A stretch of 62,035 bases of DNA, from the NCBI GenBank assembly GCA_946411475.1, contig CAMKED010000001.1, positions 1 to 62,035 on the forward strand, written 5' to 3'. The DNA is from an uncultured Clostridia bacterium (GTDB lineage: Bacteria; Bacillota; Clostridia; Oscillospirales; Oscillospiraceae). A program made the translations under genes and the position numbers. This document shows positions 11,045 through 61,124 of the stretch, piece after piece; the first letter of the stretch is position 1, and each line of letters starts with the position of its first letter. The notes under the pieces are model-generated. The model had not been told where the DNA came from. It searched no databases and saw only the letters and a program-made list of their open reading frames with translations.

Positions 11045-11102
11045 CCATGATGTCTGGTGCAGTCTATGATTTACTGCATTGAACTATTCCAAAATTCGCA
11101 GC

Positions 11103-11323: not shown

Positions 11324-11339
11324 TGTTTCAGGAGATAAA

Positions 11340-13614: not shown

Positions 13615-13616
13615 GC

Positions 13617-13664
13617 GTAGGGACAAGCATTGCTTGTCCGCGGACGAGCGCTGCTCGTCCCTAC
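13617..13664. repeat. Inverted doublet of GTAGGGAC palindromes (REPIN-like)
   Basis: The sequence is GTAGGGACAAGCATTGCTTGTCC-gc-GGACGAGCGCTGCTCGTCCCTAC. It begins 3 nt after the stop of the CdaR-like gene. Confidence 0.9.
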
Positions 13665-19390: not shown

Positions 19391-19475
19391 GGCTGTAGGG
19401 ACGGCACCCTGCCGTCCGTGGTTCAGAGTTCAGGGTTCCGGGTTCAGAGCCCGCAGCGCGGGCAATCTGCCCGCC
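19387..19475. repeat. GTAG heads, GTAGGGAC palindrome, TCAGRGT stutter, GCGGGCAATCTGCCCGC hairpin
   Basis: The sequence is cCGTAGggctGTAGGGACGGCAcccTGCCGTCC, then gtggttcagagttcagggttccgggttcagag, then gcgggcaatctgcccgcc. The stop TAG of the S41 gene (19388-19390) is part of the first GTAG. Confidence 0.85.
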
Positions 19476-19624
19476 CGGTTTGCCGGAGGAAAACAATCAG
19501 ATAACAGATAATCGTTTCGGTATTGCTGCGCGATGAATTGTAGTTCTATTTGCCAATTCGTTGAATTGGAAAAAAACGACAATTCTCAATTCTCACCGCT
19601 CAATTCTAAATACAGGAGCTGTCA

Positions 19625-20799: not shown

Positions 20800-21014
20800 G
20801 TAGGGGCGCACAGTGTGCGCCACGGGAGGAAGTGCGTTATCGAGACACCACCTCATCCGTCATCGGGCTTCCGTGAGACGCCCGCTGCCACCAGCGCTTA
20901 ATGTTGCCAGTTGCGTCAGCATAGCTGCCGCACTGGCGATGAAATCCACAACAGTCCCCCGGACTGTTGTGTCCCCTCAAGGGGAAGGCTTTGTAGGGGC
21001 GCACAGTGTGCGCC
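20800..21014. repeat. Mosaic block between greA and lysS
   Basis: GTAGGGGCGCACAGTGTGCGCC occurs at 20800 and again at 20993 (direct). ccacctcatccgtcatcgggcttccgtgagacgcccgctgccacc lies at 20848-20892, the hairpin CACAACAGTCCcccGGACTGTTGTG at 20947-20971, and CCCCTCAAGGGGAAGG at 20972-20989. Confidence 0.9.
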
Positions 21015-21074
21015 ATGTGAAAACATATCAGGCGGCCGGAACTCCGGCCGCCGTATCATATAGGAGGAAGCCCT

Positions 21075-30809: not shown

Positions 30810-32141
30810 ATGAAAACCAATACTGCGGTCAAAGGTCTCATTGATTTTCTGAGCAAGAGCCCCTCTGCGTTCCATGCAGTCGAGAATTTGCGGCAAATGC
30901 TGCTGGCGGACGGTTTTGCTGAGCTGCCCGAGAGCCGTCGTTGGGACGTTAAGCCCGGCGGTCGCTATTTCACCACCCGCAACGGCTCCAGCATCCTGGC
31001 CTTCCGCGTGGGCACCGAGCTCTCCGAGCCCTGCTTCACTCTGACTGCCTCTCATTCCGATTCTCCCTGCTTCAAGATCAAGGAGAACGCTGAGCTGCGC
31101 GTCCGCGACAAGTACGTCCAGCTCAATACCGAGGGCTACGGCGGCATGATCTGCTCCACCTGGATGGACCGGCCGCTCGGCGTGGCGGGCCGCGTCCTGG
31201 TGCGGGTCAAGACGGAGGCAGGGGAGCGCTACGAGACCCGGCTTCTCGACTTTGACCGCGATCTGGTCCTGATCCCCAATATGGCCATCCACATGAACCG
31301 CAAGATCAACGACGGCTATACCTTCAACAGGCAGATCGACATGGTCCCGCTCTTCGGCTCCGGCAAGCTGAAAAAGGGTGCGTTCAAGGCCATGATTGCC
31401 AAGGAACTCGGCGTGGCCGAGGCGGATATCCTGGGCTCCGATCTCTTCCTGTATAACCGCATGGCGCCCACCGTCTGGGGTGCGGAAAATGAATACGTCT
31501 CCGCCGGCCGTCTGGACGATCTGGAATGCGCCTACGGCACGTTGCGCGGCTTCCTGCAGGGCAAGAACGAGAAGACCATCCAGGTCTGGTGCTGCTTTGA
31601 CAACGAAGAAGTCGGCTCCGGCACCAAGCAGGGCGCAGATTCCACCATGCTGGAGGACGTGCTGCGCCGCATTGCCAACGGCCTGGGTTTCGACGATGAG
31701 GACTACCGCTGCATGACCGCCCGGAGCTTCATGCTCTCCTGCGACAATGCCCATGCGGTCCACCCCAACCACCCGGAGAAGACCGACGCCACCAACTGCA
31801 CGTTCATGAACGAGGGCATCGTAGTCAAGGCCCATGCCGGACAGAAGTACACCTCCGACGCAGTCTCCGTGGCCCTGTTCCGCGGCGTTTGCGAGAAGGC
31901 CGGCGTGCCGGTCCAGTTCTTTGCCAACCGTTCCGACGAGAACGGCGGCTCTACGCTGGGCAATATCGCGATGGCGCACGTGTCCATGAATACCGTCGAT
32001 CTCGGTCTGCCCCAGCTTGCCATGCACAGCAGCTACGAGACCGCGGGCGTGCAGGATCTGAAATACCTCGAAACTGCCAGCGCGGCCTTCTACGGCACGC
32101 ACTTTACGGCAGACGGCAAGGGCGGCTTCGCGGCTGAATGA
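30810..32141 (+). CDS. M18 family aminopeptidase
   Basis: 443 aa. The translation shows ...LIDFLSKSPSAFHAVENL..., ...TASHSDSPCFKIKE... and ...DNEEVGS... Confidence 0.88.
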   Translation: MKTNTAVKGLIDFLSKSPSAFHAVENLRQMLLADGFAELPESRRWDVKPGGRYFTTRNGSSILAFRVGTELSEPCFTLTASHSDSPCFKIKENAELRVRDKYVQLNTEGYGGMICSTWMDRPLGVAGRVLVRVKTEAGERYETRLLDFDRDLVLIPNMAIHMNRKINDGYTFNRQIDMVPLFGSGKLKKGAFKAMIAKELGVAEADILGSDLFLYNRMAPTVWGAENEYVSAGRLDDLECAYGTLRGFLQGKNEKTIQVWCCFDNEEVGSGTKQGADSTMLEDVLRRIANGLGFDDEDYRCMTARSFMLSCDNAHAVHPNHPEKTDATNCTFMNEGIVVKAHAGQKYTSDAVSVALFRGVCEKAGVPVQFFANRSDENGGSTLGNIAMAHVSMNTVDLGLPQLAMHSSYETAGVQDLKYLETASAAFYGTHFTADGKGGFAAE

Positions 32142-32323
32142 AGTATTTGCTTGCGCAAATATGAAGTATGCTTCGCATTTGAAGTGTGCTCCGCACATGA
32201 AGTATGGCTGCGCCATATCTCTCGCGCGTCCAAATATGCGCGGCAGCGCATACTTCATATCCGCGCCGGCGGGTACTTCATATTCCGCAGGAATACTTCA
32301 TATCGCCGCCAGGCGATACTTCA
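32139..32323. repeat. Inverted doublet of GAAGTAT mini-hairpin modules (4 forward + 4 reverse units)
   Basis: TGAAGTAT/TGAAGTGT occurs at 32139, 32162, 32180 and 32198, and ATACTTCA/GTACTTCA at 32250, 32273, 32293 and 32316. The first unit contains the stop TGA of the M18 gene. Confidence 0.9.
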
Positions 32324-32344
32324 TCCAACCACAGGAGGCTGCCG

Positions 32345-33145
32345 ATGTTCCAAAAGCTTACTGATACGTCATATGCCGTCTCCGCCTGGTCCGGCGGGAC
32401 GACGACGCAGCTTGCAATTTTTCCGCCGGAGGCAAAGTATGCCGACCGGGACTTCCTTTGGCGGGTCAGCTCTGCCACGGTGGATCTGGAGGAATCGGAC
32501 TTCACCGCCCTGCCGGACTATGACCGCCTGATCGCCACCCTGCAGGGGGAGATCGTACTGACCCACAACGGCGGCGCGCCGATAAAGCTTCACCCTTTCG
32601 AGGTCCACGCCTTTTCCGGTGCGGACGCGACGCACAGCGTCGGCTGCTGCACGGACTTCAACCTGATGCTCCGCCGCGGCCGCGCCGCCGGAACCATGGA
32701 GGCTTTGCGTCTGACGGACGCACCGACCCGCCTCTCCGTAGGGACAAGCATTGCTTGTCCGAAAACCTCCCCTGCAAGCAGGGGAGGAGGAGCGCCGCAG
32801 CGCGGCGCGGAGGAGGGGTGCCTCCCGCCCGAGGTACCAACTGCCCCCGCTGTAGGGACAAGCATTGCTTGTCCGCCCAATGCCTCTGAAGAGACGCTGC
32901 TTCTCTACTGCGCAGAGGGTTCCTGCACCGCAACCGTAGGGGCGGTTGAAACCTCCCCTGCAAGCAGGGGAGGTGGAGCGCCGCAGCGCGGCGCGGAGGA
33001 GGGGTGTTGCCCGCAACCCGCAGCGGCTATCCCCGTCTCCCTCCGCGCAGGCGAAACCCTCCTGCTGACTGCCCCCGCAGCGCTGACCTTCACCGGCGAG
33101 GCCACCCTCATGCTCTGCCGGATCCGGACTGACAACAAAACGTAA
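32345..33145 (+). CDS. HutD/Ves family protein carrying two in-frame repeat-derived insertions
   Basis: The ATG at 32345 follows caggagg. It shows HutD-like sequence (SAWSGGTTTQLAIFPPEAKYADRDFLWRVSSATVDLEESDFTALPDYDRLIATLQGE). At 266 aa it is longer than the ~185 aa usual for the family. The extra ~80 aa map exactly onto repeat units at 32736-33010. Confidence 0.7.
   Translation: MFQKLTDTSYAVSAWSGGTTTQLAIFPPEAKYADRDFLWRVSSATVDLEESDFTALPDYDRLIATLQGEIVLTHNGGAPIKLHPFEVHAFSGADATHSVGCCTDFNLMLRRGRAAGTMEALRLTDAPTRLSVGTSIACPKTSPASRGGGAPQRGAEEGCLPPEVPTAPAVGTSIACPPNASEETLLLYCAEGSCTATVGAVETSPASRGGGAPQRGAEEGCCPQPAAAIPVSLRAGETLLLTAPAALTFTGEATLMLCRIRTDNKT
32736..33010. repeat. Intragenic repeat units inside the hutD-like ORF
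   Basis: GTAGGGACAAGCATTGCTTGTCC occurs at 32738 and 32852. CCTCCCCTGCAAGCAGGGGAGG + GAGCGCCGCAGCGCGGCGCGGAGGAGGGGTG occurs at 32767-32820 and 32952-33006. A GTAGGGGCGG head lies at 32936. Confidence 0.9.
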
Positions 33146-34879: not shown

Positions 34880-36109
34880 ATGACCCAGGAACTGATGAAG
34901 CGCATCTTCGCGGAAACCGATTTTGTTCACCGCAGCGGCACGCCGGAGGAGCTCCGCGTGGCCGAATATCTCAAGGCCCAATGCGACGCGCTGGGCGTCC
35001 CGGCCTGGATCGAGTCCTTCCCCGTGGCCATGGGCGAGATCGAGGAGGCCCACGTCTACGCCGACGGCAAGGAGATCCCCTGTAAGGGCTTCTTCTGCTG
35101 CGGCAGCGGCGAGGTCGAAGCCGAGCTCTACTATATGCCTGCCCAGGATCCGGTCTCCGTGGCCGGCGCCAAGGACAAGATCGTCCTGATGGACAGCTCC
35201 GGCATCGGCTTCTTCGGCTATCAGGATCTGATGAAAGCCGGCGCCAAGGGCATTCTGTTCCAGTACGGCGATATCCATTATCCCATTGACGACATTGACG
35301 AGCGCGACCTGCGCGCCGCCGTAGTCGGAGAGGAGCAGAAGGTCCTCTGCGCCATGCTGAACACCGCAGACGCCGTGAACCTGCTGCGCAGCGAGACCAA
35401 GCGCGTCAAGATCAGCATCCGCCAGCGGGAATACGAAGGCAGATCCAACAACGTGATCGCGGAGCTGCCCGGCAAGCGGGACGAGTGGATCGTTCTCTCG
35501 GCCCACTACGACACCACAGCGCTTTCCCACGGCTCCTACGACAATATGTCCGGCTGCGTGGGTATCCTCGGCGTGCTGGAGGCTTTGAAGGACAAGCCGC
35601 TGAACTACGGCCTGCGCCTGGTGTTCTGCGGCAGCGAGGAGCGCGGCCTGCTGGGCTCCAAGGCCTATACCAAGGATCATGAAGCCGAGCTGCCCAAGAT
35701 TGCCCTGAACGTCAACCTGGACATGATCGGCACCTGGCTGGGCAAATTCATTGCCAAGGTCTCTGCGGAGGACAAATTGGTCCACTATCTGAGCTACATC
35801 GGCGCGGAGCTGAGCTTCCCGGTGGAGGCCAAGCAGGGCGTCTATTCCAGCGATTCAACCCCCTTTGCCGATAAGGGCGTCCCCGCCCTGTCCTTTGCCC
35901 GTCTGGCTTCGCCCAATGCTGCCCCGATCCACTGCCGTTACGACCTGCCCGAGGTCCTGTCCATGGCACAAATGGAGAAGGATATCGCTTTCATCGCGGA
36001 GTTTACCCGCCGCATGGCCATGTCCGCCGTTTGTCCCGTGGGCCGCGACATTCCCGAGAAGGTCAAGACCGAGCTCGACGAATACCTGTTCCGCAAGCGT
36101 CGCGCCTGA
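34880..36109 (+). CDS. M28 family peptidase
   Basis: 409 aa. It shows ...NVIAELPG...VLSAHYDT..., ...CGSEERGLLGSKAY... and ...NLDMIG... Confidence 0.8.
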   Translation: MTQELMKRIFAETDFVHRSGTPEELRVAEYLKAQCDALGVPAWIESFPVAMGEIEEAHVYADGKEIPCKGFFCCGSGEVEAELYYMPAQDPVSVAGAKDKIVLMDSSGIGFFGYQDLMKAGAKGILFQYGDIHYPIDDIDERDLRAAVVGEEQKVLCAMLNTADAVNLLRSETKRVKISIRQREYEGRSNNVIAELPGKRDEWIVLSAHYDTTALSHGSYDNMSGCVGILGVLEALKDKPLNYGLRLVFCGSEERGLLGSKAYTKDHEAELPKIALNVNLDMIGTWLGKFIAKVSAEDKLVHYLSYIGAELSFPVEAKQGVYSSDSTPFADKGVPALSFARLASPNAAPIHCRYDLPEVLSMAQMEKDIAFIAEFTRRMAMSAVCPVGRDIPEKVKTELDEYLFRKRRA

Positions 36110-36422
36110 GCCTTCCCCTTGAGGGGAAGGTGCCCCAGTGCGCACACTGGGGCGGATGAGGTGGTGCCCCAGCAACGCAATTGAGAGTTGAGAATTGAGA
36201 ATTGTCGGTGTTTTGCAGATTGCCATCTGCAAAACGAAAAACGATGAAGCCGACAGCGACGCGAAGACAGAGCCAGCGCTACAGGCCGTAGGGACGACTC
36301 GGAGCCGTCCGCATATTCCTTTTTTCATCGTTCAAATGGCAATTTGAACGATACCATCACTTTCAACGTTCCATTTTCAACTTTCAACTGTTTTTCCCCT
36401 GGCACACACTGTGCGCCCCTAC
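36110..36422. repeat. Large mosaic repeat block between the M28 and aldo/keto reductase genes
   Basis: The block holds GCCTTCCCCTTGAGGGGAAGG + TGCCCCAGTGCGCACACTGGGGC + GGATGAGGTGG (36110-36164) and a TTGAGAR stutter (36181-36204). It also holds the AT hairpins GTTTTGCAGATtgccATCTGCAAAAC (36210-36235) and TCGTTCAAATggcaATTTGAACGA (36328-36351). GTAGGGACGACTCGGAGCCGTCC lies at 36288, a TTTCAAC stutter at 36361-36390, and an inverted GTAG palindrome at 36401-36422. Confidence 0.9.
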
Positions 36423-38908: not shown

Positions 38909-38963
38909 GCCTTCCCCTCAAGGGGAAGGCTCCCCAGTGCGCACACTGGGGCGGATGAGGTGG
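38909..38963. repeat. Three-part CCTTCCCC composite element
   Basis: The sequence is GCCTTCCCCTCAAGGGGAAGGC + TCCCCAGTGCGCACACTGGGGC + GGATGAGGTGG, nearly identical to 36110-36164. Confidence 0.9.
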
Positions 38964-46659: not shown

Positions 46660-46675
46660 AGGTTGCCTTCCTCGT

Positions 46676-46893
46676 TTTGGGTTCAGAGTTCAGAGTCCGT
46701 AGGGACGAGCATTGCTCGTCCGTGGTTCAGAGTTCAGGGTTCAGAGTTCAGGGTATGACCTCCCCTGCTTGCAGGGGAGGGGGACCGCCTCAAGGCGGTG
46801 GAGGGGTGGCTGTTGTATGTAATTGCTTCCGTAGGGTTCAGAGTTCAGGGTTCAGAGTTCAGAGTCCGTCCCCTGTTGCCGATTGCCTTGTCA
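46676..46893. repeat. Mosaic block: TCAGRGT stutter, GTAGGGAC palindrome, inverted 90-nt element, CTGTTGCC stutter
   Basis: gggttcagagttcagagtcc is followed by GTAGGGACGAGCATTGCTCGTCC (46699-46721) and another stutter. The inverted copy of the 12081-12170 element lies at 46751-46840 (86/90 identical by eye). A further stutter and ccctgttgccgattgccttgtcacc follow. Confidence 0.9.
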
Positions 46894-48072: not shown

Positions 48073-48094
48073 TGTTTACGCTCCTGTGAAGGAA

Positions 48095-48387
48095 TGAAGT
48101 ATTGCCTGGAGGCAATATGAAGTATTCCTTCGGAATATGAAGGATCTCTTTTGGAGAGATATGAAGTATGTGCGACGCGCATATCTGGAAGCAAGGGAAG
48201 GTGTCTCGTGGAAAGTCGTAGGGATGAGCAGTGCTCGTCCGGCATTCGTACCCAGTCGGATCGCCCCGAGAGCGGACAAGCAGTGCTTGTCCCTACATCC
48301 GGAAAGATATGGCGCAGCTATACTTCATAAGCAAAGTGTCTTCATACGGCGAAGCCGTACTTCACATTTGCGTCAGCAAATACTTCA
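48095..48387. repeat. Composite palindrome: 4 GAAGTAT units, a GTAGGGA REPIN-like doublet, then 4 inverted units
   Basis: TGAAGTAT/TGAAGGAT occurs at 48095, 48118, 48138 and 48162. GTAGGGATGAGCAGTGCTCGTCC (48218-48240) and the inverted GGACAAGCAGTGCTTGTCCCTAC (48274-48296) sit in the centre. ATACTTCA-type units follow at 48320, 48338 (degenerate), 48357 and 48380. Confidence 0.9.
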
Positions 48388-48391
48388 TTTC

Positions 48392-50197
<1,806 letters not shown>

Positions 50198-50947: not shown

Positions 50948-52368
50948 AACAGACCAAACGAAGCCTCGCGCTCTTTGGCTTTTTTGACCGCGACGGCATC
51001 GAGGCCTGGCTCGAGCGGCAGGCCGAGAAGGGCTGGCTCTTGGAGCGTGTGAGCGAGCTGTTCTGGCATTTTCGCCGGATCGAGCCGAAAAAACTGCATT
51101 TTTCTCTGGTCTATGACCCCAATGGCTCTGTATTTGACGCCAGGCCCACGGAAGCGCAGTTGGAGTTTCAGGATTTTTGCGCGCACACGGGCTGGAAGCT
51201 GGCGGCCTTCAACGCCCAAATGCAGATCTATTACAACGAATCCGCTGCGCCGACGCCCATCGAGACCGATGAGCTGCTGGAGCTGCCCGCGATTCGGACG
51301 TCGATCCGAAAGCACTACCTGCCGATGTTTTCCATCTTCACCTTTGACGCGATCTTCTTTTGCGCGCTCTTTTTCTTCCGCCTGTCCTACGATCCCCTTG
51401 CCGTCCTGACGAACACGTCCTATCTGCTTTTTGGCCTGTGCGCCATGCTGATGCTGGTCGGTTCGGCGGTAGATTTGATCAGCTTTTTGTGCTGGCGGCG
51501 GCAGGCCGGGCGGGCGATCGGGCAGGGAGGCGCGCTTCCCAAAACCAGACGGGTCTTTCCGTGCCGTTACGCGATTCTGCTCCTGCTGTTGCTGTGTTCG
51601 GTATTTATGCTGGCCTCCTTTGCAGAGCAGCTTCATTTGAAGACCGGCATCCGTTTTGCGATCCTGAGCTTTGTCGGCATGCTGGGTGGGGCAGGCTGTA
51701 TTGTTCTGACCTTCGAGCTGATCAAGAGGCGGAGGATGTCGAGGCGGAAGAATCGAATCCTTGCGATCTCCCTTGTCCTTTTATATTCGGTAGGCTTCGC
51801 TGCGTTTCTGATCGGGATGATCTTTCACCAGCTTCCGTCCGGGCGGCTGTCAAGTACTCCGGCGGAGACTTACGAATACAGGGGACACAGCTTTGCGGTC
51901 TACCGCGATGAGATTCCGCTGACCATCGAGGACTTGATGGATCCGGGCTACGATCTGTATTCTTATGAGCTCCACTATAACGAGGCTTCTGTGCTTTTGG
52001 AGTTTTTGCAGGCGGAGCAAAGTCCCTGCTGGGACGCCCTTGCCGAGCCGGCCCTGAGCTACAGCGTCACCACGGTCAAGCTGCCGTTGCTGTACGACTG
52101 GTGCAGGGATCTGAACCTTGCGGATATTTCTACCCTCACAGGACATATCCGGGTCAGCTACGAGGACGACCCGCCCGACCGCTTTATCCGGGTGGATCCC
52201 GGCCCGTGGCAGGCGAACGAGGCCTATCAGCGCATGTTTGACGACGAGCCGGATAGCTGGTTCGTGCTCTGCTATGACGAGCGCATCGTGCGGATCATCT
52301 TCGACGGAGACGATTGGACGCTGAACGACGCGCAAAAGCGCCTGGTTGGGGAGACACTCGGAAAATAA
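50944..52368 (+). CDS. DUF2812 domain-containing membrane protein
   Basis: An ATGA overlap joins it to padR. MKQTKRSLALFGFFDRDGIEAWLERQAEKGWLLERVSELFWHFRRIEPKKLHF... is a typical DUF2812 N-terminus. It also has 5-6 TM segments and a C-terminal domain. Confidence 0.7.
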   Translation: MKQTKRSLALFGFFDRDGIEAWLERQAEKGWLLERVSELFWHFRRIEPKKLHFSLVYDPNGSVFDARPTEAQLEFQDFCAHTGWKLAAFNAQMQIYYNESAAPTPIETDELLELPAIRTSIRKHYLPMFSIFTFDAIFFCALFFFRLSYDPLAVLTNTSYLLFGLCAMLMLVGSAVDLISFLCWRRQAGRAIGQGGALPKTRRVFPCRYAILLLLLLCSVFMLASFAEQLHLKTGIRFAILSFVGMLGGAGCIVLTFELIKRRRMSRRKNRILAISLVLLYSVGFAAFLIGMIFHQLPSGRLSSTPAETYEYRGHSFAVYRDEIPLTIEDLMDPGYDLYSYELHYNEASVLLEFLQAEQSPCWDALAEPALSYSVTTVKLPLLYDWCRDLNLADISTLTGHIRVSYEDDPPDRFIRVDPGPWQANEAYQRMFDDEPDSWFVLCYDERIVRIIFDGDDWTLNDAQKRLVGETLGK

Positions 52369-52376
52369 GAAAGAAG

Positions 52377-52421
52377 CCCGCCGCGCCGCGTCCAAATCGG
52401 ACGCGGCGCGGCGGATTTTTG
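52377..52421. terminator. Bidirectional intrinsic terminator
   Basis: CCGCCGCGCCGCGTCCaaatcGGACGCGGCGCGGCGG is followed by attttt. Confidence 0.8.
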
Positions 52422-52426
52422 AACGT

Positions 52427-53074
52427 TCAGTTGCCAAGCAAAAATGCCGCCAGCGCGCCGAAGTCCCGGGCGGTGCAGATCACCCCGGCGGCTTCGAGCT
52501 CCCCGGGCGCCGCGTAGCCCCAGAGCGCGCCGATGCAGGCAATGCCGGCCTGAGCCGCGCCGATGGCGTCGTATTTGGTGTCGCCCACCAGCACGGTGTC
52601 GGCAGGCTCCGCCCCGCACAGCTCCATCGCCCGCCGGACGACCATCCATTTCCGGTCGTCCTTTTTGCCGGGCGTGCTGCCCACGATTGCGTCAAAGCAA
52701 TCCCGCAGCCCTGCCCGATCCAGCAGCAGCTCCGCCAGCGCCTGGGGCTTGGAGGTGGCCACGCCCAGATGCAGCCCTGCGGCCCGAAGCCGGAGGAGCA
52801 TCTCTCCCACGCCGGGAAAGGGGGCGCTCTCATAGACCCCGATGGGCAGATAGCGCTCGCGGTAATCCAGAACCAACTGCTCTGCCAGAGCCTTGTCCAC
52901 CCCGTAGACCTCCATGAACTTGTCTACCAGCGGCGGTCCCGCAAAGCAGCGCAGGGATTCCAGCGGGGCTTCGATCCCGTGCTTTCCCAGCGCGTATTGG
53001 ACGCATTTTGTGATGCCCTCCACCGTGTCGTAGAGGGTGCCGTCAAAGTCAAATAATACGGTGTTGTATTTCAT
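52427..53074 (-). CDS. HAD-IA family hydrolase (phosphoglycolate phosphatase-like)
   Basis: 215 aa. The translation is MKYNTVLFDFDGTLYDT... with ...VGDTKYD... Confidence 0.85.
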   Translation of the reverse strand: MKYNTVLFDFDGTLYDTVEGITKCVQYALGKHGIEAPLESLRCFAGPPLVDKFMEVYGVDKALAEQLVLDYRERYLPIGVYESAPFPGVGEMLLRLRAAGLHLGVATSKPQALAELLLDRAGLRDCFDAIVGSTPGKKDDRKWMVVRRAMELCGAEPADTVLVGDTKYDAIGAAQAGIACIGALWGYAAPGELEAAGVICTARDFGALAAFLLGN

Positions 53075-53120
53075 AACAGTTCCTCTTTGTTCGATTATAG
53101 CAAAATGCTATTCAGTGTCA

Positions 53121-53326
53121 GAATAGTTGAAAGTTGAAAATGGAAAGGTATCTATTCAGTCGCACCCGCTCCGTAGTGGCCGCGCACCTGCGCGGCCATG
53201 GCGCGTATCGCTTTTTTCTGTGGATTTATGGCCGCGCAGGTGCGCGGCCACTACGACCCTGCTGAACAGATACATGGCAATTTGAAAAACTCCTCCATTT
53301 TCAACTCTCAACGTTCATTTTTCAAC
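53121..53326. repeat. TTGAAAR stutters flanking a long REPIN-like inverted doublet
   Basis: gaatagttgaaagttgaaaatggaaagg leads into GTATCTATTCAG...GTAGTGGCCGCGCAccTGCGCGGCCAT (53173-53199). A 28-nt spacer separates it from ATGGCCGCGCAggTGCGCGGCCACTAC (53228-53254) and ...CTGAACAGATAC. The block ends with ccattttcaactctcaacgttcatttttcaactc. Confidence 0.9.
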
Positions 53327-53369
53327 TCGATCTGCATTGCACGCAGTTCTTTGACACAGTGCTTCGCGA

Positions 53370-54173
53370 TCAGATATGATCTACCTTGTTCATGCTCCCC
53401 ATCCGATAGCCTCCCAGGTCGACTGTGACCCAGCGGTAGCCCAGGCCCCGCAGAGCTTCGTTGACTGCGGCGGCCAGGGCCGGATCCCGGAGCCGGGCCA
53501 TTCCGGACTCGTCCAGCTCGAGCCGGGCCAGATCGCCGTGATCCCGCACCCGGAGCTGCCGGAAGCCCTGCGCTGCGAGCCAGTTCTCCGCGGCCTCCAC
53601 CCGGGCCAGGCCCGCGGCGGAGATGGGCCGGCCGGTCACAAAACGGGTCGCCAGACAGGCCATCGCGGGCTTGTCCCAGGTGGACAGGCCCAGTTCCTTA
53701 GAGATGGCGCGAATCTCCGATTTGGTCAGCTCCGCTTCCAGCAGGGGAGAGCGGACGCCCAGCTCCCGGATGGCTCGCATGCCGGGGCGGTAGTCGCCTA
53801 AGTCGTCCAGATTGGAGCCCTCGGCCACCCATTGCAGGCCGAGGCTCCGGGCCGTCTCTGCGATTTGCGTAAAGATGGCCTTTTTGCACAGATAGCAGCG
53901 CTCCGGCGGGTTGTCCGCTACGTCGGGGATGGACAGCGTGTCCACGTCCGGCAGAATATGCCGGACGCCCTCGGCCGCACAGAACGCGGCGGCAGCCTCC
54001 AGCTCCCGCGCCGGAACGAAGCGGGAGCGCACCGTCACCGCCGCGGCCCGCTCGCCCAGCGCTTCCCGGGCCGCCCGCAGCAGCAGCGTGGAATCCACGC
54101 CGCCCGAAAAGGCCACGGCCACGGAGCCCAGCTCCCGCAGCAGCCCCAGCAGCCGATCATACCCGCCGCTCAT
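53370..54173 (-). CDS. larE: ATP-dependent sacrificial sulfur transferase LarE
   Basis: The start at 54173 makes an ATGA overlap with the larC stop. The translation ...VAVAFSGGVDSTLLL... shows the PP-loop SGGxDS, with a conserved Cys context (...CYLCKK...). Confidence 0.85.
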   Translation of the reverse strand: MSGGYDRLLGLLRELGSVAVAFSGGVDSTLLLRAAREALGERAAAVTVRSRFVPARELEAAAAFCAAEGVRHILPDVDTLSIPDVADNPPERCYLCKKAIFTQIAETARSLGLQWVAEGSNLDDLGDYRPGMRAIRELGVRSPLLEAELTKSEIRAISKELGLSTWDKPAMACLATRFVTGRPISAAGLARVEAAENWLAAQGFRQLRVRDHGDLARLELDESGMARLRDPALAAAVNEALRGLGYRWVTVDLGGYRMGSMNKVDHI

Positions 54174-55507
54174 GCTTCTGCATGTAGGGACAAGCATTGC
54201 TTGTCCGTCTGAATTGCTTGCCGTACCGTGTCAATGGAAATCCCCTGTTCCAGTGCAATACGCGCCAGGTCATCATATTCGTATTTGACCCGTTCCACGC
54301 CGAACCCGGAGGCAATCTTTCGCCGCACGGGGCCGAACGCGGTCTCTACGGTGTCCACCCGCCGCTCCAACACGGCCCGGCGCAGGACGGCTTCCCGCAC
54401 CCCTAAGGTCGTGGTGTGCCGGAAGAGCAGGGAGATCATGCTGTCCCGATCTGCGTGTTTACATAACACACAAAACATCGTTCCGGGACGGCCTTTCTTC
54501 ATCCCAATGGCCTCGGTCCAAACGTCCAGCGCCCCGGCCTCCAACAGCCGCTCGACCGCGAAGCCGACGGCCTCGCCCGTCATGTCGTCGAGATTGCAGC
54601 GGAGCTCCAGCACCTCGTCGGCCTCCTGCTCCGCCGTTTCGCCCAGCAGGGCGCGGACGCAGTTGGCCGCAGGGAAGTCCTTCCGGCCCATGCCGTAGCC
54701 GATGGCTGCGGTCCGCATCACGGGCATTGCCCCGAACTTGTTGACATAATATTTTAACAAGGCCGCGCCCGTCGGCGTGCAGAGCTCGCCCTGGATCGCG
54801 CCGCCGTAGATCGGCACGCCCCGCAGCAGCTCCGCCGTAGCGGGGGCTGGGACGGGCATCAGCCCGTGCGCGCAGCGAACCTGCCCGCAGCCGACGTGGA
54901 TGGGGGAGCAGAGGATCTGTGCCGGGGCCAGCTCGTGGATCAGCAGGCAGACGGCCGCCACGTCGGCCACCGCGTCCAGGGAGCCCACCTCATGGAAGTG
55001 GATCTCCTCCACCGGGACGCCGTGCACCTTGCTCTCAGCCTCAGCCAGCAGCCCGTATACCGCCAGCACGTCAGCCTTGACCGCCTCGGGCAGGTCAAGA
55101 TGATCCTGCACCAGATGCGCGATCCCATGCATCCCGGTATGGGGATGATGATGGTGCTCCCCGTCCCCTGGTGACTGTTGACTGGTGACTGGCGACTCAT
55201 GATGCTCATGCTCGTGCGCCTCGGGAAAGCCTTCCCCCTGGGGGGAAGGTGTCGGCGCAGCCGACGGATGAGGGGGTGTCTCGTCGTGGTGATGCACATG
55301 CTCCTCCGCGCCGTCCACGGTCACGCGCATGTGCGTGCCGGAAATGCCGCACTTCACGGAATTCTCGGCCCGGTATTCCACCCCGGGGATGCCGAGCGCG
55401 TTGAGCCGGGCCAAAAACTCCGCCTTGTCGGGCAGCAGCTCGAGCAGGGCCGCCGTGAGCATGTCGCCCGCGGCGCCCATAGAGCAGTCAAAATAGAGTG
55501 TTTTCAT
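54170..55507 (-). CDS. larC: Nickel insertion protein LarC (nickel-pincer cofactor biosynthesis)
   Basis: 445 aa. MKTLYFDCSMGAAGDMLTAALLEL... is the DUF111 N-terminus. A His-rich central region carries a repeat-derived insert. Confidence 0.85.
   Translation of the reverse strand: MKTLYFDCSMGAAGDMLTAALLELLPDKAEFLARLNALGIPGVEYRAENSVKCGISGTHMRVTVDGAEEHVHHHDETPPHPSAAPTPSPQGEGFPEAHEHEHHESPVTSQQSPGDGEHHHHPHTGMHGIAHLVQDHLDLPEAVKADVLAVYGLLAEAESKVHGVPVEEIHFHEVGSLDAVADVAAVCLLIHELAPAQILCSPIHVGCGQVRCAHGLMPVPAPATAELLRGVPIYGGAIQGELCTPTGAALLKYYVNKFGAMPVMRTAAIGYGMGRKDFPAANCVRALLGETAEQEADEVLELRCNLDDMTGEAVGFAVERLLEAGALDVWTEAIGMKKGRPGTMFCVLCKHADRDSMISLLFRHTTTLGVREAVLRRAVLERRVDTVETAFGPVRRKIASGFGVERVKYEYDDLARIALEQGISIDTVRQAIQTDKQCLSLHAEA
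54184..54206. repeat. GTAGGGAC palindrome inside the last codons of larC
   Basis: GTAGGGACAAGCATTGCTTGTCC on the plus strand is read on the minus strand as ...TDKQCLSLHAEA*, ending at the larC/larE ATGA junction. Confidence 0.9.
55170..55277. repeat. Intragenic GTGAC stutter and CCTTCCCC composite inside larC
   Basis: ggtgactgttgactggtgactggcgac spans 55170-55196. GCCTTCCCCCTGGGGGGAAGG + TGTCGGCGCAGCCGAC + GGATGAGGGGG spans 55230-55277. The block translates on the minus strand as PPHPSAAPTPSPQGEGF...SPVTSQQSP. Confidence 0.9.
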
Positions 55508-56259
55508 CGCTTTGCCTCCATGTGATTGATCCGATTTGCCAGAAATCCGGCGCCGAAGCCGTTGTCGATGTTCACCACGCTGACCCCGCTGGCGCAGGAA
55601 TTCAGCATGGACAGCAGCGCCGAAACCCCGTGGAAGGAGGCTCCATAGCCCACGCTGGTCGGCACGGCGATCACCGGGCAGTCCACCAGCCCGCCGAGGA
55701 CGGATGCCAGAGCGCCCTCCATGCCCGCGATGGCGACGACCACCGACGCCCCCATCAGCTCGTCCAGATGGGAGAGCACGCGGTGCAGGCCTGCCACGCC
55801 CACGTCGTAGAGCCGTACCACGCGACTGCCGAGGAACTCTGCGGTCAGCGCGGCCTCCTCGGCCACGGGCAGGTCGCTGGTGCCGCCCGTGGCAACGACA
55901 ATATAGCCGAGCCCGTCTGGGGCAGGGGCCTCGCCCAAGCTGGCGATCCGGGCCGTCGCGTCATAGCGCAGGGGAAAGCGTCCAACCAGCGATTCGGCCT
56001 TTTCGGCGTCCAGACGGGTAATCAGCACGCGCGCCTGCCCGTTTTTGATCATCGTATCCAGAATCCCGGAGATCTGCTCGACGGTTTTGCCTGCCCCGTA
56101 GACGACCTCAGCAGCCCCCTGCCGCAGCTTGCGGTGGAGGTCCACCTTGGCGTAGCCGATGTCGGCAAAGGGAGCCTTTTTCAGCGCAAGCAGCGCCTCG
56201 TCCACGGAGACGGCTCCGCTCCGTAGCTGCTCCAAAATCTGTCTGGCGTCTGTATTCAT
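55504..56259 (-). CDS. larB: Nickel pincer cofactor biosynthesis protein LarB (AIR carboxylase-like)
   Basis: The internal ATG at 56259 gives ...DLHRKLRQGAAEVVYGAGKT... and ...VVATGGTSDLPVAEEA...VAIAGMEGALASVLGG... Its end makes an ATGA overlap with the larC start. Confidence 0.88.
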   Translation of the reverse strand: MNTDARQILEQLRSGAVSVDEALLALKKAPFADIGYAKVDLHRKLRQGAAEVVYGAGKTVEQISGILDTMIKNGQARVLITRLDAEKAESLVGRFPLRYDATARIASLGEAPAPDGLGYIVVATGGTSDLPVAEEAALTAEFLGSRVVRLYDVGVAGLHRVLSHLDELMGASVVVAIAGMEGALASVLGGLVDCPVIAVPTSVGYGASFHGVSALLSMLNSCASGVSVVNIDNGFGAGFLANRINHMEAKR

Positions 56260-56289
56260 GTGTTCGCCTCCCGCTTGTTTTCTTCCCAT

Positions 56290-56318
56290 ACTATACCATG
56301 CTTTGCGTGGAATTGCAA
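56290..56318 (-). promoter_or_regulatory. Putative larBCE promoter
   Basis: On the minus strand: TTGCAA (56318-56313), 17 nt, TATAGT (56295-56290). Confidence 0.55.
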
Positions 56319-56362
56319 AAGAAAAAGTTTCCCGGCTTCCGCAAACGCGAAAACCGGGAAAA
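56316..56362 (-). terminator. Intrinsic terminator after the DUF937 gene
   Basis: On the minus strand, TTTCCCGGttttcgcgtttgcggaagCCGGGAAA is followed by CTTTTTCTTTT. Confidence 0.7.
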
Positions 56363-56364
56363 AC

Positions 56365-57063
56365 TCAATGGAACAGGCTCAGCAGACCGTCCAGCAGGCC
56401 GGAGGACTGCTCCTGCTGCTGGTTGTTGTCGGTGAGCTGGATGGTGGTCGGATTGCTGCTCTGATTTGAGCCGCCGCCCAGCAGAGAGGAGAACAGGCCG
56501 GAGGCCATGGAGGCGTTGCTGTTCGAATTACCTCCCAGCAGGGAACCGAGGAGACCGCCGGAGCTCTGCTGGCTCTGATTACTCTGGCTGCCGCCGCCGA
56601 GCAGACCGCCCAACATCCCGAGCAGGCCGCCGGAGCTGCTTTGATTCGCGCTGCTCTGATTGGAATTGCCGAGCAGGGACAGCAGCAGGGGCGCGGCCAG
56701 TGCAAGAACGGAGGTGGACTTGCCCTTTGTGACGCCGGTGGCCTTGGAGATCTGGTCGATCAGTCCGGTTTGATCCTTGCCCAGAACGTGGCCGAGAATT
56801 TTCTTGCCGTCAGCCAGGTCCGCGCTTTTGAGGAAGGCGGCGGGGTCGGAAACGTCGTCCTTGCCGTGATCCGCCAGCGCTTTGGACAGGGAATCCGCAC
56901 CGGATGCGGTGCCTGCGTTCCGCTTCATGCCGCCCACCAGCGCCGGAATTCCGGCGGAGAGGACCTTTGCCACGTCCTCCTGCTTGAGCTTGGTGCGCTT
57001 GCAAATGGCGTCCAGGCCGCCGCCGGAGATCAGCGTGCCGATGGAGTTGAGATCAAACGCCAT
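56365..57063 (-). CDS. DUF937 domain-containing protein with G/S/Q/N-rich C-terminus
   Basis: 232 aa. The translation shows ...LSAGIPALVGGM... and ...GKKILGHVLG......ISKATG...KSTSVLALAAPLLLSLLG, followed by SGGLLGxLLGG repeats. Confidence 0.6.
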   Translation of the reverse strand: MAFDLNSIGTLISGGGLDAICKRTKLKQEDVAKVLSAGIPALVGGMKRNAGTASGADSLSKALADHGKDDVSDPAAFLKSADLADGKKILGHVLGKDQTGLIDQISKATGVTKGKSTSVLALAAPLLLSLLGNSNQSSANQSSSGGLLGMLGGLLGGGSQSNQSQQSSGGLLGSLLGGNSNSNASMASGLFSSLLGGGSNQSSNPTTIQLTDNNQQQEQSSGLLDGLLSLFH

Positions 57064-57064
57064 C

Positions 57065-57970
57065 TCAGTTTCCTCCCGTGACGGTCGGCGCTGCGGTCGT
57101 GTTGACGACGGGAACCTGATCCTTATTCTCGGAAGCAGTGCCGCCTTCTACGTTCAGCTCAGCCAGATTCAGGTTGATTCCCCAATCTGCGGCGTGTGCG
57201 GCGCAGTAGGAGCAGATCGCGGTACGGCCGGACTCAATGGCCTCGGTGACGGAGCCCTTGTAGACGGAGCTGGATTCACGGATATAGGGGCAATCGACCG
57301 CAACCTGCTCAGCGTCCGGGTCGCCGTTATACTTCAGGTGATACTTGTGTCCGAACTGGGTCCAGTAGACGTCGCCGTTGATCTGGGACTCAGCCTCGTC
57401 CTTCTGCTCGGCGGAGATGGGATGATAGTCCGCGGAGGCGGCTCCGGTGATCAGCAGCGCCACGGCTGCAATGATCGCGGCGATGGTCTTGGTCTTCTTG
57501 TCCAGCTTGTCGCTCTTCAGCAGCAGAACGATCAGCGGGATGAAGCAGATGCAAGCCATGATGACGCCCAGCTCGTTCCAGAGATAGAACAGGAACTTGC
57601 CGCGCTTCTCGCTCATGGGCTTGATGTGGTTGGCCTTCTTCCAAAGCTGTGCCGCAGTGATGCAGGCGGCCATATCCAGGACCACGAAACCGATGAACGC
57701 AATCCACATGTTGGTGTCGCCGTTATGCGTGAAGCGGATGACGAAGTTCTTGGTGATCGCCATGATGGCAAAGACCTCACAGACGATCGCAACGATCCAG
57801 AGAAGCACTGCGCCGATGCGCAGGCCGACGGTGCTGCCGCCGGTGGGCTTGTTGGGCGTGATGACGGTCTGCGGCTTTCTGGCCGCGGCGGGCTTCTTGG
57901 CGGGCTCGGCCGCCTTCTTGGCAGGCTCCGCAGCCTTCTTTTCCGTATTGCGGACGATCTTTTCTGCCAT
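57065..57970 (-). CDS. Hypothetical membrane protein (KKAAEPA repeats, 4 TM, Cys-containing C-terminal domain)
   Basis: A 301-aa ORF in an operon-like arrangement with the DUF937 gene (1-nt gap). No family was recognised. Confidence 0.5.
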   Translation of the reverse strand: MAEKIVRNTEKKAAEPAKKAAEPAKKPAAARKPQTVITPNKPTGGSTVGLRIGAVLLWIVAIVCEVFAIMAITKNFVIRFTHNGDTNMWIAFIGFVVLDMAACITAAQLWKKANHIKPMSEKRGKFLFYLWNELGVIMACICFIPLIVLLLKSDKLDKKTKTIAAIIAAVALLITGAASADYHPISAEQKDEAESQINGDVYWTQFGHKYHLKYNGDPDAEQVAVDCPYIRESSSVYKGSVTEAIESGRTAICSYCAAHAADWGINLNLAELNVEGGTASENKDQVPVVNTTAAPTVTGGN

Positions 57971-58014
57971 AAGGGAATTCCTCCATTTCTTTTTCTCAAA
58001 ATATAGGGGAATTG

Positions 58015-58644: not shown

Positions 58645-58654
58645 GCCCCTCCAG

Positions 58655-58750
58655 TTTCAGTTGAAAGTTGAAAATGGAAAGTTGAAAATGAATGTGTTTT
58701 GCAAATTGCAATTTGCAAAACTCCAAAATTCTCCATTCTCACTTCTCAAT
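58655..58750. repeat. TTGAAAR stutter, AT hairpin, TTCTCA stutter
   Basis: tttcagttgaaagttgaaaatggaaagttgaaaatgaa is followed by GTTTTGCAAATtgcaATTTGCAAAAC (58696-58721). Then comes ccaaaattctccattctcacttctcaatt, which contains the cinA stop at 58739-58741. Confidence 0.85.
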
Positions 58751-59630: not shown

Positions 59631-59660
59631 TTTTTACCACGTATTTGTTAGCTTCCACGC

Positions 59661-60962: not shown

Positions 60963-60986
60963 GGGTATTCTCCTTGGTTCAAAATA

Positions 60987-61112: not shown

Positions 61113-61124
61113 TTTGGGGGAAGT

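Follow-up and report, generated by a model that had tools for sequence, protein, structure and literature searches.

The window analysed here (62,035 nucleotides, positions 1 to 62,035 of contig CAMKED010000001.1 from an uncultured Clostridia bacterium) carries six copies of a short repeat, family A, laid out as a hairpin with one pyrimidine and one purine arm (H1), then a hairpin of variable sequence (H2), and last a purine tail. H1 reads CCTTCCCC N4 GGGGAAGG and has six matches in the window (36111-36130, 38910-38929, 55230-55249, 58387-58406, 60988-61007, and 61092-61111), against 0.02 expected from shuffles, and the tail consensus GGATGAGGKGG is matched at 36154, 38953, 55266, and 61028 on the plus strand and at 20848 and 58344 on the minus strand. 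Folded as single-stranded DNA, the family-A copies form two adjacent hairpins each (z-scores -3.2 to -5.6), and ViennaRNA folding of the element predicts two hairpins only. A previous reading of this DNA from its letters alone (the sequence-only reading) had placed copies of a three-part composite here, all of which we found to within 1-2 nt.

The complete copy at 36110-36164 (plus strand) begins directly past the stop codon of an M28 peptidase gene (34880-36109) and is kept in four strain variants. It comprises the H1 5' arm (36111-36118), the loop TTGA (36119-36122), the 3' arm (36123-36130), H2 (36133-36152), and the tail GGATGAGG (36154-36161), which is followed by TGG. The ends of the element are fixed, since metatranscriptome contigs that have nothing but the repeat in common with the window stop matching at precisely 36109/36110 and 36164; these RNA-run contigs are unstranded, may include DNA, and are informative on presence and repeat boundaries only. 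The 5' end of the element reads (A)AGCC, preceded at position -1 by A or T in 131 of 138 copies. The three-part element is thus confirmed as a short DNA repeat with defined ends, in the 45-65 nt class. Elements of this kind also break metagenome assemblies at contig ends, which is of consequence for annotation.

Two further complete copies lie between genes on the plus strand. The one at 38909-38963 shares its H2 allele with the 36110 copy, has a flipped H1 loop (TCAA), and sits between convergent genes just 3' of the intrinsic terminator of a NUDIX gene; the one at 60987-61038 falls between two minus-strand genes (ThiI and Mg-chelatase-like) and is antisense to both. The remaining material is partial. 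At 20848-20892 on the minus strand, taken in the sequence-only reading as an inverted copy, H2 and the tail are present with no adjoining H1. The hairpin remnant at 20972-20990 (TCCCCTCAAGGGGAAGGC, family D14, no strand assigned), previously regarded as isolated, is probably the H1 of that copy, displaced by an insert of ~79 nt. A second hairpin regarded as isolated, the perfect palindrome GCCTTCCCCTCAAGGGGAAGGC at 61091-61112 (no strand assigned), is indeed a solo H1, with H2 and tail absent on either side.

Two copies lie inside coding sequences. The copy at 55229-55277 (plus strand) is antisense to the LarC gene that contains it (54170-55507, minus strand) and is translated in frame as TPPHPSAAPTPSPQGEGF in a His-rich loop of the protein; some LarC orthologues have it and others do not. 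In an empty-site search the indel separating these orthologues measured 93 nt with GAGCATG at both ends, and is therefore not a clean insertion. The complete copy at 58344-58407 (minus strand, H2 loop of 11 nt) is read in frame within a VanZ-like gene (58015-58644, minus strand), where a 117-nt composite of element, spacer, and GTAG REP is missing from an orthologue. For strains lacking the copies in 52000-62035, joints in DNA-run contigs were mostly repeat cross-mapping and not interpretable. In-frame peptides added by the element to proteins such as LarC and VanZ matter for annotation. Rickettsia palindromic elements are likewise palindromic repeats found in frame in protein-coding genes, tolerated in surface or loop regions, but they differ from the element in sequence, size, and hosts, and we know of no triplex design among them.

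A sister family of the same design, family B, went unreported in the sequence-only reading. It consists of H1 CCTCCCCTGCWWGCAGGGGAGG, a variable hairpin, and the tail GGAGGGGTG, and has five copies in the window. Those at 12113-12162 (minus strand; H1 CCTCCCCTGCTTGCAGGGGAGG, H2 ACCGCCTCAAGGCGGT, tail GGAGGGGTGG; D16) and 12203-12252 (minus strand) lie within a perfect 90-nt tandem duplication, the latter in its second copy. The others, all on the plus strand, are at 32766-32820 (H2 CGCCGCAGCGCGGCG, tail GGAGGGGTG; D11), 32952-33006, and 46759-46808, where the tail GGAGGGGTG mirrors the H1 purine arm exactly.

Distribution and insertion marks

The element was found in at least 118 bacterial genome loci, chiefly of gut and rumen Clostridia with other phyla represented as well, and in at least 119 viral or plasmid-like contigs, both counts being lower bounds. 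Its flanks vary across genomes, phyla, and mobile elements. Relative to chromosomal genes, 34 copies are in sense and 26 in antisense orientation, showing no bias, and sites between convergent genes (17) exceed those between divergent genes (6). On mobile elements nearly every copy runs antisense to the genes, an observation not predicted by the triplex and DUF559 model developed below. No fixed orientation or position relative to a regulated gene, as a cis-regulatory RNA or riboswitch would have, was found, with the exception of a subset directly upstream of DUF559 genes, and we found no promoter or terminator accompanying the copies. A scan of the whole window against Rfam at the gathering threshold returned no match, and a literature search with the sequence strings GCCTTCCCC, GGGGAAGG, and GGATGAGG returned unrelated matches only.

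Target-site duplications, for which the sequence-only reading had proposed a search, were not found: flanking 3-6-mers are duplicated no more often than in permutations. The element is also unlike a MITE in that its two ends are mirror repeats rather than inverted repeats.

The window is full of GTAG REPs, abundant as units separate from the element, and a REP-spacer-element composite occurs twice (20800-20892 and 58296-58407), most copies elsewhere being solo. As copies are physically joined to GTAG REPs, another enzyme could move those in the window, and the element might be an ordinary REP/BIME moved along with the GTAG REPs by the RAYT (Y1 transposase) of the genome, its ends serving as protein sites and its mirror symmetry and DUF559 neighbours being by-products. 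The recurrence of the composite, its role as the unit inserted in the VanZ-like gene, and the lack of target-site duplications, which REPs share, favor such an origin. We nevertheless consider it unlikely: the element has no GTAG/CGTC tetranucleotide at the hairpin foot, it occurs in many genomes, phyla, and mobile elements with variable flanks, and no Y1 (HUH) transposase or other transposase family was found to recur near the copies. The view in the sequence-only reading that this is no simple REP therefore stands, the GTAG tag being absent and the recurrent neighbour being DUF559 rather than a Y1 transposase.

Covariation of hairpins and tail

The tail repeats the purine arm of H1 in mirror order and covaries with H1 across at least 10 H1 variants, following the code (H1 pair to tail base) C-G→G, T-A→A/T, and G-C→T. 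H1 CCTTCCCC goes with tail GGATGAGG; among the variants, GCTTCCCC goes with tail TGATGAGG in 24 of 26 cases, GCTTCTCC with TGATGAGG in 12 of 13, and CCTTCTCC with GGATGAGG in 10 of 11. Other families obey the same rule: CCTCCCC(T)→GGAGGGG(T), GCTCCCC→TGAGGGG, CCTCCCTT→GGAGGGATT, GCTCCCTT→TGAGGGATT, CCTCCCTC→GGAGGGAG, and CCTTCCTC→GGAAGGAG. A tail that shifts with H1 in this way would not be predicted of a fixed protein site, which also argues against movement by the RAYT.

Layer by layer, the relationship was measured on DUF559-anchored loci unselected for the element, with the tail read blind directly after H2. At layer 1, C→G occurred 92 times and G→T 47 times, against 12 and 4 off the diagonal (Fisher p = 1e-23), and layers 4, 7, and 8 covaried too. 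The base 3' of the tail tracks the loop-closing positions of H1 (T..A→T in 92/98, C..G→G in 18/18, G..G→C in 4/4, and A..G→T in 7/7). One mismatch is conserved in the main family, where tail position 6 is A and H1 layer 6 is C-G; the CCTTCTCC and GCTTCTCC sub-families alone resolve it. Some of the linkage between H1 and tail could come from sub-family descent rather than constraint, since layer 1 has two states only, and a Shine-Dalgarno role of the tail at DUF559 genes could alone conserve its 'GAGG'.

The middle hairpin behaves as a structure-only spacer that is free in sequence. Among 262 copies of H2 there are 195 distinct sequences, and 98% form a hairpin of at least 4 bp, with a mean folding energy of -8.6 kcal/mol compared with -3.1 kcal/mol for shuffles. 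Compensatory changes occur in five of seven pairs, and the covariation score of 0.308 (0.094 for shuffles) was reached by none of 500 shuffles. The loops are dominated by GNA triloops (GAA 39, GCA 19, GGA 7, GTA 6), which are typical of DNA mini-hairpins and here outnumber GNRA tetraloops.

These results bear unevenly on the sequence-only reading. Its discrete unit, with ends that are conserved around a middle hairpin whose structure persists while the sequence varies, is borne out by the H2 covariation, and its parts are not strewn independently at random distances: in sequence unselected for the element, H1 occurs with the tail in exactly one orientation at 24/27 GCTTCCCC, 11/13 GCTTCTCC, and 9/11 CCTTCTCC sites. 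Its notion of cassette-like modular swapping fails, the middle being nearly continuous in sequence, as does that of hairpin classes shared with GTAG subfamilies, for only one H2 allele, CCCCAGTGCGCACACTGGGG, shares the GCGCACACTG core with a GTAG REP. Nor are the conserved ends independent modules, given that the tail mirrors the H1 purine arm and covaries with it.

The mirror code is that of an antiparallel purine-motif triple helix, and the three blocks of intrastrand triplex repeats (pyrimidine, complementary purine, and mirror purine) are all present on one strand. In the fold that we propose, H1 would form a hairpin of a pyrimidine arm and a purine arm, H2 would serve as a sequence-free mini-hairpin at the turn, and the purine tail would fold back antiparallel onto the purine arm of H1. 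The predicted triplets are G*G-C, A*A-T, and T*A-T, with T facing an inverted G-C pair, and the first base past the tail would reach the loop-closing layer of H1. Such a triplex would, we infer, form in the cell.

Other folds were considered and set aside. Were the tail paired with the H1 5' arm by Watson-Crick rules, six of eight pairs would form, with two central mismatches; this was rejected because the variable post-tail base would then face an invariant G. A G-quadruplex accounts neither for the layer-specific A/T and T positions nor for the covariation with the C-rich arm. Were the complementary strand to form a triplex of the pyrimidine motif, T would be needed at every A-T layer; the purine motif is preferred because the observed A/T interchange fits that motif only. 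Sequestration of a Shine-Dalgarno sequence by an anti-Shine-Dalgarno sequence inside the element was rejected as a general rule, the weak pairing being the same, the tail nonetheless acting as the Shine-Dalgarno sequence for DUF559.

DUF559 nuclease genes beside the element

A single gene family recurs beside the element beyond a few loci, DUF559, which adjoins it in 10 of the 118 listed genome loci; the other recurrent neighbour clusters are housekeeping genes, as judged by sequence inspection. The DUF559 genes encode Vsr-like, PD-(D/E)xK-type proteins of ~120 aa and are flanked by elements. Approached from the gene, an element lies within 160 nt of DUF559 in ~69 of 80 DUF559 loci, at a density of 5.6 per kb near the gene and 0.34 per kb farther off. 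The gene usually sits between two inverted copies, with CC-type and GC-type copies pairing around it, and around some DUF559 genes the elements belong to families other than A (loci L198, L205, and L182). The tail ends 5-9 nt upstream of the start codon, where it serves as the ribosome-binding site (Shine-Dalgarno) of DUF559, and the inverted tail overlaps the stop codon. Genes embedded in the element in this manner, with the ribosome-binding site supplied and the stop codon covered, are a further point against an ordinary REP moved by the RAYT. There is no DUF559 gene in the window or in the 119 listed viral loci.

The family is related to the solved structure 3HRL and to the domain of the homing endonuclease I-Bth0305I (3R3P), and DUF559 might accordingly be a selfish gene for a homing-type endonuclease, inserting where pairs of repeats already exist. 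The repeats would then be its target and not its cargo, having spread otherwise or been retained because they serve the host, for instance by pausing replication or as hotspots of recombination. The gene lies between tail-to-tail and also head-to-head pairs, tail-to-tail pairs without the gene exist (for example, L056 and L066), and L088 has tandem duplications of the element together with the gene start, all of which would fit such insertion. However, genes diverged to 43-75% identity have their ribosome-binding site and stop codon integrated in the element, which implies that element and DUF559 have long co-evolved, and E. coli has a single DUF559 gene, ycjD, but 23 copies of its triplex repeat TMECO. 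We regard insertion of this kind as quite unlikely.

The E. coli gene offers a parallel. YcjD is 41% identical to the gut DUF559 proteins; a BoxC-like hairpin lies over the ycjD stop codon and TMECO #9 (BoxC #9) ~170 nt downstream, an arrangement kept in 3317 of 5426 E. coli genomes.

We therefore favor, with somewhat better than even confidence, the proposal that the element belongs, as one family, to a broader class of repeats that fold as an intrastrand triplex and are genetically coupled to a DUF559 nuclease that recognises or processes the fold. By recognising or processing the folded element, the nuclease would maintain or spread the repeat, in analogy to RAYT and REP, and on that analogy DUF559 would have a catalytic role in element mobility. 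The copies in the window would then be solo and non-autonomous, scattered in intergenic DNA and in tolerant protein loops. To our knowledge, PD-(D/E)xK or Vsr-like nucleases do not transpose short repeats.

Known repeats and implications

REP/REPIN-RAYT systems resemble the element in being short, structured, high in copy number, and without target-site duplications, and in having a small single gene flanked by inverted copies of its own repeat, with gene lineages pairing with repeat families. The element differs from them in lacking the GTAG/CGTC tag, in having a Vsr-like DUF559 partner rather than an HUH Y1 transposase, and in possessing a third, mirror-repeat part.

The nearest known relatives are Whalefall-1, taken up below, and the BoxC/PIT/TMECO repeats (PIT, potential intrastrand triplex), which occur in Proteobacteria including E. 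coli (Hoyne et al. 2000; Holder et al. 2015, PMC4666352). The latter have the design of the element: on a single strand, pyrimidines are followed by their purine complement and then by another run of purines, as in intrastrand triplexes of class II (purine motif). The element and these repeats are alike in being multi-copy and mostly intergenic, in having no chromosomal strand bias, and in forming inverted pairs of two sub-types. Their sequences differ (CCCTCNCCC/GGGNGAGGG in TMECO compared with CCTTCCCC/GGGGAAGG/GGATGAGG in the element), as do their hosts (Proteobacteria compared with gut and rumen Firmicutes, other phyla, and mobile elements) and the second loop, which has 3 nt in BoxC/PIT/TMECO and is a covarying hairpin of 12-45 nt in the element. 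The element consequently falls outside the TMECO consensus CCCTCNCCC N3-6 GGGNGAGGG N3 GGGNGAGGG with loops of 1-6 nt (the ITxF definition), and the published ITxF search would miss it because of that second loop. The TMECO study reported that the motif is not associated with transposons, phages, or plasmids and makes no mention of ycjD or DUF559, and its in vivo DMS probing of TMECO in E. coli showed no protection (PMC4666352).

Whalefall-1 (Rfam RF01762; Weinberg et al. 2010, PMC2864571), a motif known from whale-fall metagenome sequence alone and read as a non-coding RNA, resembles the element in its three-part layout: UCUCUCC/GGAGAGA form the first hairpin, the second hairpin is variable, and a purine tail (AGGGUGAGG) makes up the 3' end. 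It is the closest Rfam model: the window copy at 36112-36161 aligns to positions 4-54 of 56 with 21.2 bits (E 0.0017), which is below the gathering score of 37, so that by Rfam's rule the copy is not a member. The Whalefall-1 consensus fits the mirror rule at six of seven positions.

Whalefall-1 being rated a certain RNA by its authors (PMC2864571), the element could be a structured RNA, either a Whalefall-1-like sRNA or a 5' leader of the DUF559 mRNA whose hairpins and tail control translation, the solo copies being orphaned or independently transcribed. The position of the tail 5' of the DUF559 start codon and the high depth of the repeat in metatranscriptome contigs are in line with this, although those contigs are unstranded and possibly include DNA. 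We find an RNA quite unlikely in light of the even chromosomal orientations, the copies inside coding sequences in either sense, the nearly always antisense copies on mobile elements, and the copies without promoter or terminator. DNA rather than RNA is, we infer, the active form of the element, because GNA triloops of the DNA type dominate, chromosomal orientation is unbiased, and purine-motif triplexes, to which the A/T interchange at A-T layers points, are reported not to form in RNA (PMC4666352). Whereas Whalefall-1 has been read as RNA, the evidence for the element points to DNA, and the Whalefall-1 'RNA' may itself be a DNA element.

Read as a DNA triplex repeat, the element adds to the known intrastrand-triplex designs a large group, not recognised before, that is found in Firmicutes of the gut and rumen and in their phage- or plasmid-like elements. 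It also brings natural covariation evidence for the putative third-strand contact, which had rested on in vitro work and one sequence. The BoxC/PIT repeats were already known in the 1990s, the DUF559/YcjD family is large, and we know of no enzyme linked to these repeats so far; DUF559 may be their long-missing partner. More tentatively, and in our view less probably than not, DUF559 proteins of the YcjD type could be the dedicated partner of intrastrand-triplex repeats in many phyla (BoxC/TMECO, Whalefall-1-like, and families A, B, and C), recognising the folded single-stranded triplex and driving its copying or excision. If true, this would be a second partnership of a nuclease and a repeat beside RAYT-REP, mechanistically unrelated to it, and would give a function to both DUF559 and BoxC. 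DUF559 is in any event a concrete candidate enzyme, testable in E. coli with its ycjD gene and 23 TMECO copies.

A three-part element with a mirrored tail

The sequence-only reading had described a composite element resembling cassette-like mosaics, and the composite itself proved real, with all six copies of family A (the repeats first noticed) found at the positions claimed for them. The unit consists of a pyrimidine/purine hairpin (H1), a variable middle hairpin (H2), and a purine tail. The H1 pattern CCTTCCCC N4 GGGGAAGG has 6 matches in the window against 0.02 expected from shuffles, five of them with the tail GGATGAGGKGG, and every copy folded as single-stranded DNA into a pair of neighboring hairpins, with the tail after them left unpaired (z-scores −3.2 to −5.6). 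Metatranscriptome contigs that share the repeat alone have breakpoints at 36109/36110 and 36164, and the unit therefore runs from GCCTTCCCC to GGATGAGGTGG. The gut metagenome behind the window is bovine or ovine, and the closest named relatives of the organism are Oscillospiraceae; four strain variants of this rumen organism retain the 36110 and 38909 copies. No H1 adjoins the 20848 copy; its H1 is probably the hairpin found at 20972, displaced by an insert of ~79 nt. This insert (20893–20971), between H1 and H2 of one element, carries a hairpin of its own (CACAACAGTCC/GGACTGTTGTG) and has no second copy in the window. The window also contains five copies of a sister family, B, which is built alike (H1 CCTCCCCTGCWWGCAGGGGAGG, variable hairpin, tail GGAGGGGTG).

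Cassette-like middles in a few classes had been proposed, but H2 sequences were near-continuous, with 195 distinct sequences of 12–45 nt among 262 copies. A hairpin of at least 4 bp was present in 98% of these middles, and the mean folding energy was −8.6 kcal/mol versus −3.1 kcal/mol for shuffles. Among 29 equal-length copies, both-sided changes occurred at 5/7 H2 pairs, and the covariation score (0.308 versus 0.094) was matched by 0/500 shuffles and was far lower in every slid register. GNA triloops with a C-G closing pair predominate in H2 (GAA 39, GCA 19, GGA 7, GTA 6), GNRA tetraloops being rarer. Such C-G-closed GNA triloops are a hallmark of very stable DNA mini-hairpins.

Read 5′ to 3′, the tail is the reversed H1 purine arm. 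In the main family, the H1 5′ arm CCTTCCCC goes with the tail GGATGAGG, and variants follow suit: GCTTCCCC with TGATGAGG (24/26), GCTTCTCC with TGATGAGG (12/13), and CCTTCTCC with GGATGAGG (10/11), where 8/8 layers match, a layer being one H1 base pair plus the tail base facing it in the proposed triple helix. Further pairings are CCTCCCC(T) with GGAGGGG(T), GCTCCCC with TGAGGGG, CCTCCCTT with GGAGGGATT, GCTCCCTT with TGAGGGATT, CCTCCCTC with GGAGGGAG, and CCTTCCTC with GGAAGGAG. A blind test used 80 loci anchored on DUF559 (a family of Vsr-like nucleases), chosen without regard to element sequence, and took as tail the 8 nt right after the first hairpin downstream of H1. At least 7/8 was scored by 114/198 oriented H1s, about half of the 198 being the wrong orientation of a palindrome. 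Layer 1 gave C→G 92 and G→T 47 versus 12 and 4 off the diagonal (Fisher p = 1e-23), with covariation also at layers 4, 7, and 8. The base after the tail tracks the two outer H1 loop bases (T..A→T 92/98, C..G→G 18/18), including the rarer loop types (G..G→C 4/4, A..G→T 7/7).

A mirrored arrangement that follows the code C-G→G, T-A→A or T, and G-C→T is the requirement of an antiparallel purine-motif third strand. Mirror repeats, unlike inverted or direct ones, are not known to be recognized by proteins. One exception to the code is conserved in the main family, namely an A at tail position 6 over a C-G layer. The third-strand contact, putative in cells, is supported by the natural covariation. 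The element groups with intrastrand-triplex repeats and is more than a mosaic REP.

Known triplex-type repeats, distribution, and strand

BoxC/PIT/TMECO repeats (CCCTCNCCC N3-6 GGGNGAGGG N3 GGGNGAGGG) are described as forming an in vitro intrastrand triplex of the class II purine-motif type, with 23 intergenic copies in E. coli K-12 lacking strand bias and two sub-types paired in inverted orientation; they are linked to local genome instability, not associated with transposons, phages, or plasmids, and of unassigned function (Holder et al. 2015, PMC4666352). The search in that paper limited loops to 1–6 nt, and elements with a hairpin as second loop were therefore beyond its reach. At permissive thresholds, the single Rfam match was Whalefall-1 (RF01762; 21.2 bits versus a gathering score of 37), which shares the element's three-part plan (UCUCUCC/GGAGAGA, a variable hairpin, and AGGGUGAGG) and whose consensus also obeys the mirror rule. 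Its only known source was a whale-fall metagenome, and its authors classed it as a certain RNA. Within the intrastrand-triplex class of bacterial repeats, the element is a variant that is both new and very widespread.

Scanning one genome per species for the exact pattern returned at least 118 loci. Most of those listed belong to Clostridia of the gut or rumen (Oscillospiraceae, Acutalibacteraceae, Lachnospiraceae, Christensenellales), and Bifidobacterium, Selenomonadaceae, a Flexilinea MAG, and a Barnesiella bin are also among the matches listed. Many matches lie at contig ends, as expected of a multi-copy repeat. Applied to IMG/VR, the scan returned at least 119 contigs, and two multi-copy contigs encode a DnaD-like initiator, a DnaB-like helicase, and ParB-like partition, one adding ParA and the other a DNA methyltransferase; both are therefore plasmid-like or phage-plasmid elements. 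Tandem arrangements were also seen, with at least four whole elements head-to-tail at 49-nt spacing in locus L093 (1144–1340), and 70-nt units, each an element plus the first 18 nt of a DUF559 gene, in L088 (6089–6350).

Relative to flanking co-oriented genes, chromosomal elements showed no bias, being sense in 34 cases and antisense in 26, with an intergenic preference for convergent (17) versus divergent (6) gene pairs. Purine-motif triplexes are reported not to form in RNA (PMC4666352). Triloop type, orientation, and the purine-motif code all favor single-stranded DNA as the putative active form. Unlike on chromosomes, all copies lie on one strand in 24/24 multi-copy viral or plasmid-like loci (within L210–L328, e.g., L221, L223, L233, and L279); only 8/153 copies are on the coding strand, and antisense outnumbers sense 61 to 4. 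Candidate explanations for this bias are a replication-strand rule and selection against G-rich, Shine-Dalgarno-like sequence in mRNA or the non-template strand.

Insertion sites and neighboring repeats in the window

An M28 peptidase gene ends with its stop codon directly at the 36110 copy, a NUDIX gene terminator precedes the 38909 copy, and the 60987 copy has a minus-strand gene on either side. The 55229 copy lies antisense within LarC (in-frame reading TPPHPSAAPTPSPQGEGF), its peptide being present in some orthologues and missing in others, with a DNA indel that is not clean. The 58344 copy is in frame within a VanZ-like gene (58015–58644, minus strand) as part of a 117-nt composite (element, 23-nt spacer, and GTAG REP) missing from the orthologue L208; the same membrane-protein loop holds 0–90 residues of REP-coded peptide among orthologues. 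Given the LarC presence/absence and the VanZ-like polymorphism, the repeats insert into tolerant coding loops with the frame kept. The target-site duplications that the sequence-only reading proposed to look for were not found at the copies.

Three repeat kinds are tolerated in frame by LarC (54170–55507, minus strand). Besides the triplex-type element, they are a heptamer run located in the His-rich loop and a GTAG REP from which the C-terminus DKQCLSL is read; in orthologues the REP-coded tails are different, e.g., ADGKVPSLQ and VAHWCAPLQ. At one orthologous VanZ-like site, REP alleles differ between the window and L208. The GTAG-headed REP hairpins form several families with different stems (GGGACAAGC.., GGGGCGCAC.., TGCCGGCAA..), at 13616–13640, 32737–32761, 32851–32875, 46698–46722, 48217–48241, and 54183–54207, and further at 20800–20822, 20993–21015, 36398–36419, 58226–58249, 58296–58320, and 19395–19476. 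At 11058–11363, a GTAG REP (GTAGTGCCGGCAATCTGCCGGCCA) is repeated in tandem as ~8 units of 34 nt. A perfect 90-nt tandem duplication at 12078–12257, its unit a family-B element plus heptamer repeats, has a near-identical inverted copy at 46743–46861. Runs of 7-nt simple repeats (GTTCAGR, AATTGAGA, TTGAAAR) recur beside REPs and triplex-type elements (46665–46865, 12060–12280, 36179–36217, 19567–19605, 36333–36390, 58652–58749, and 53113–53145), one run in LarC reading SPVTSQQSP in frame. In a further family, short hairpins are flanked by ATATGAAGTA half-sites, with copies in both direct and inverted orientation (3135–3171, 32132–32337, 48081–48174, and 48340–48393). At 53172–53255, two perfect inverted 28-nt arms (CGTAGTGGCCGCGCACCTGCGCGGCCAT) lie 28 nt apart in a REPIN-like arrangement; metagenome depth is very high at 53005–53339.

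Association with DUF559 nucleases

When all ORFs of the 118 element-anchored loci listed were clustered, a single family, a ~120-aa protein present in 10 of these loci, was repeatedly found directly beside the element. It matches Pfam DUF559 (E 1e-26 to 1e-30), with PDB 3HRL and the Vsr-like homing endonuclease domain 3R3P as relatives. Other recurrent clusters were, by sequence inspection, housekeeping (e.g., ABC and MATE transporters and an Mfd-like helicase). The usual layout has a direct element upstream, its tail ending 5–9 nt before the ATG, so that GAGGTG is the Shine-Dalgarno sequence of the nuclease gene, and an inverted element downstream, its tail encoding the last codons (TSS...) or following the stop codon. 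Reciprocally, across 80 metagenome loci with relatives of the protein (52%–88% identity), an element lay within 160 nt in ~69, and density was 5.6 per kb near the gene versus 0.34 per kb farther out. Direct upstream plus inverted downstream was the most frequent configuration (17 loci), the head-to-head opposite also being seen, and some genes are flanked by non-family-A elements, e.g., GCTCCCTT/TGAGGGATT at L198 and L205. Neither the window nor any of the viral loci listed contains a DUF559 gene.

The E. coli member, ycjD, is 41% identical to the gut proteins. Its stop codon lies inside a BoxC-like hairpin followed by a duplicated 3′ gene fragment, and TMECO #9 (1351204–1351239) lies ~170 nt downstream. 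In the K-12 locus (L207 7040–7840; 1351039–1351839), the ycjD start is within a hairpin ending in GAATGAGGTG. The stretch from ycjD to TMECO #9 is kept in 3317/5426 complete E. coli genomes. PMC4666352 makes no mention of ycjD, and titles and abstracts matching either DUF559 or ycjD give no link to these repeats. The genetic link between element and DUF559 nucleases is consistent and apparently unreported, and it holds for E. coli BoxC too. The link may reflect a homing endonuclease or maintenance of the repeats by the host; our inference is that DUF559 proteins may play a RAYT-like role on the element.
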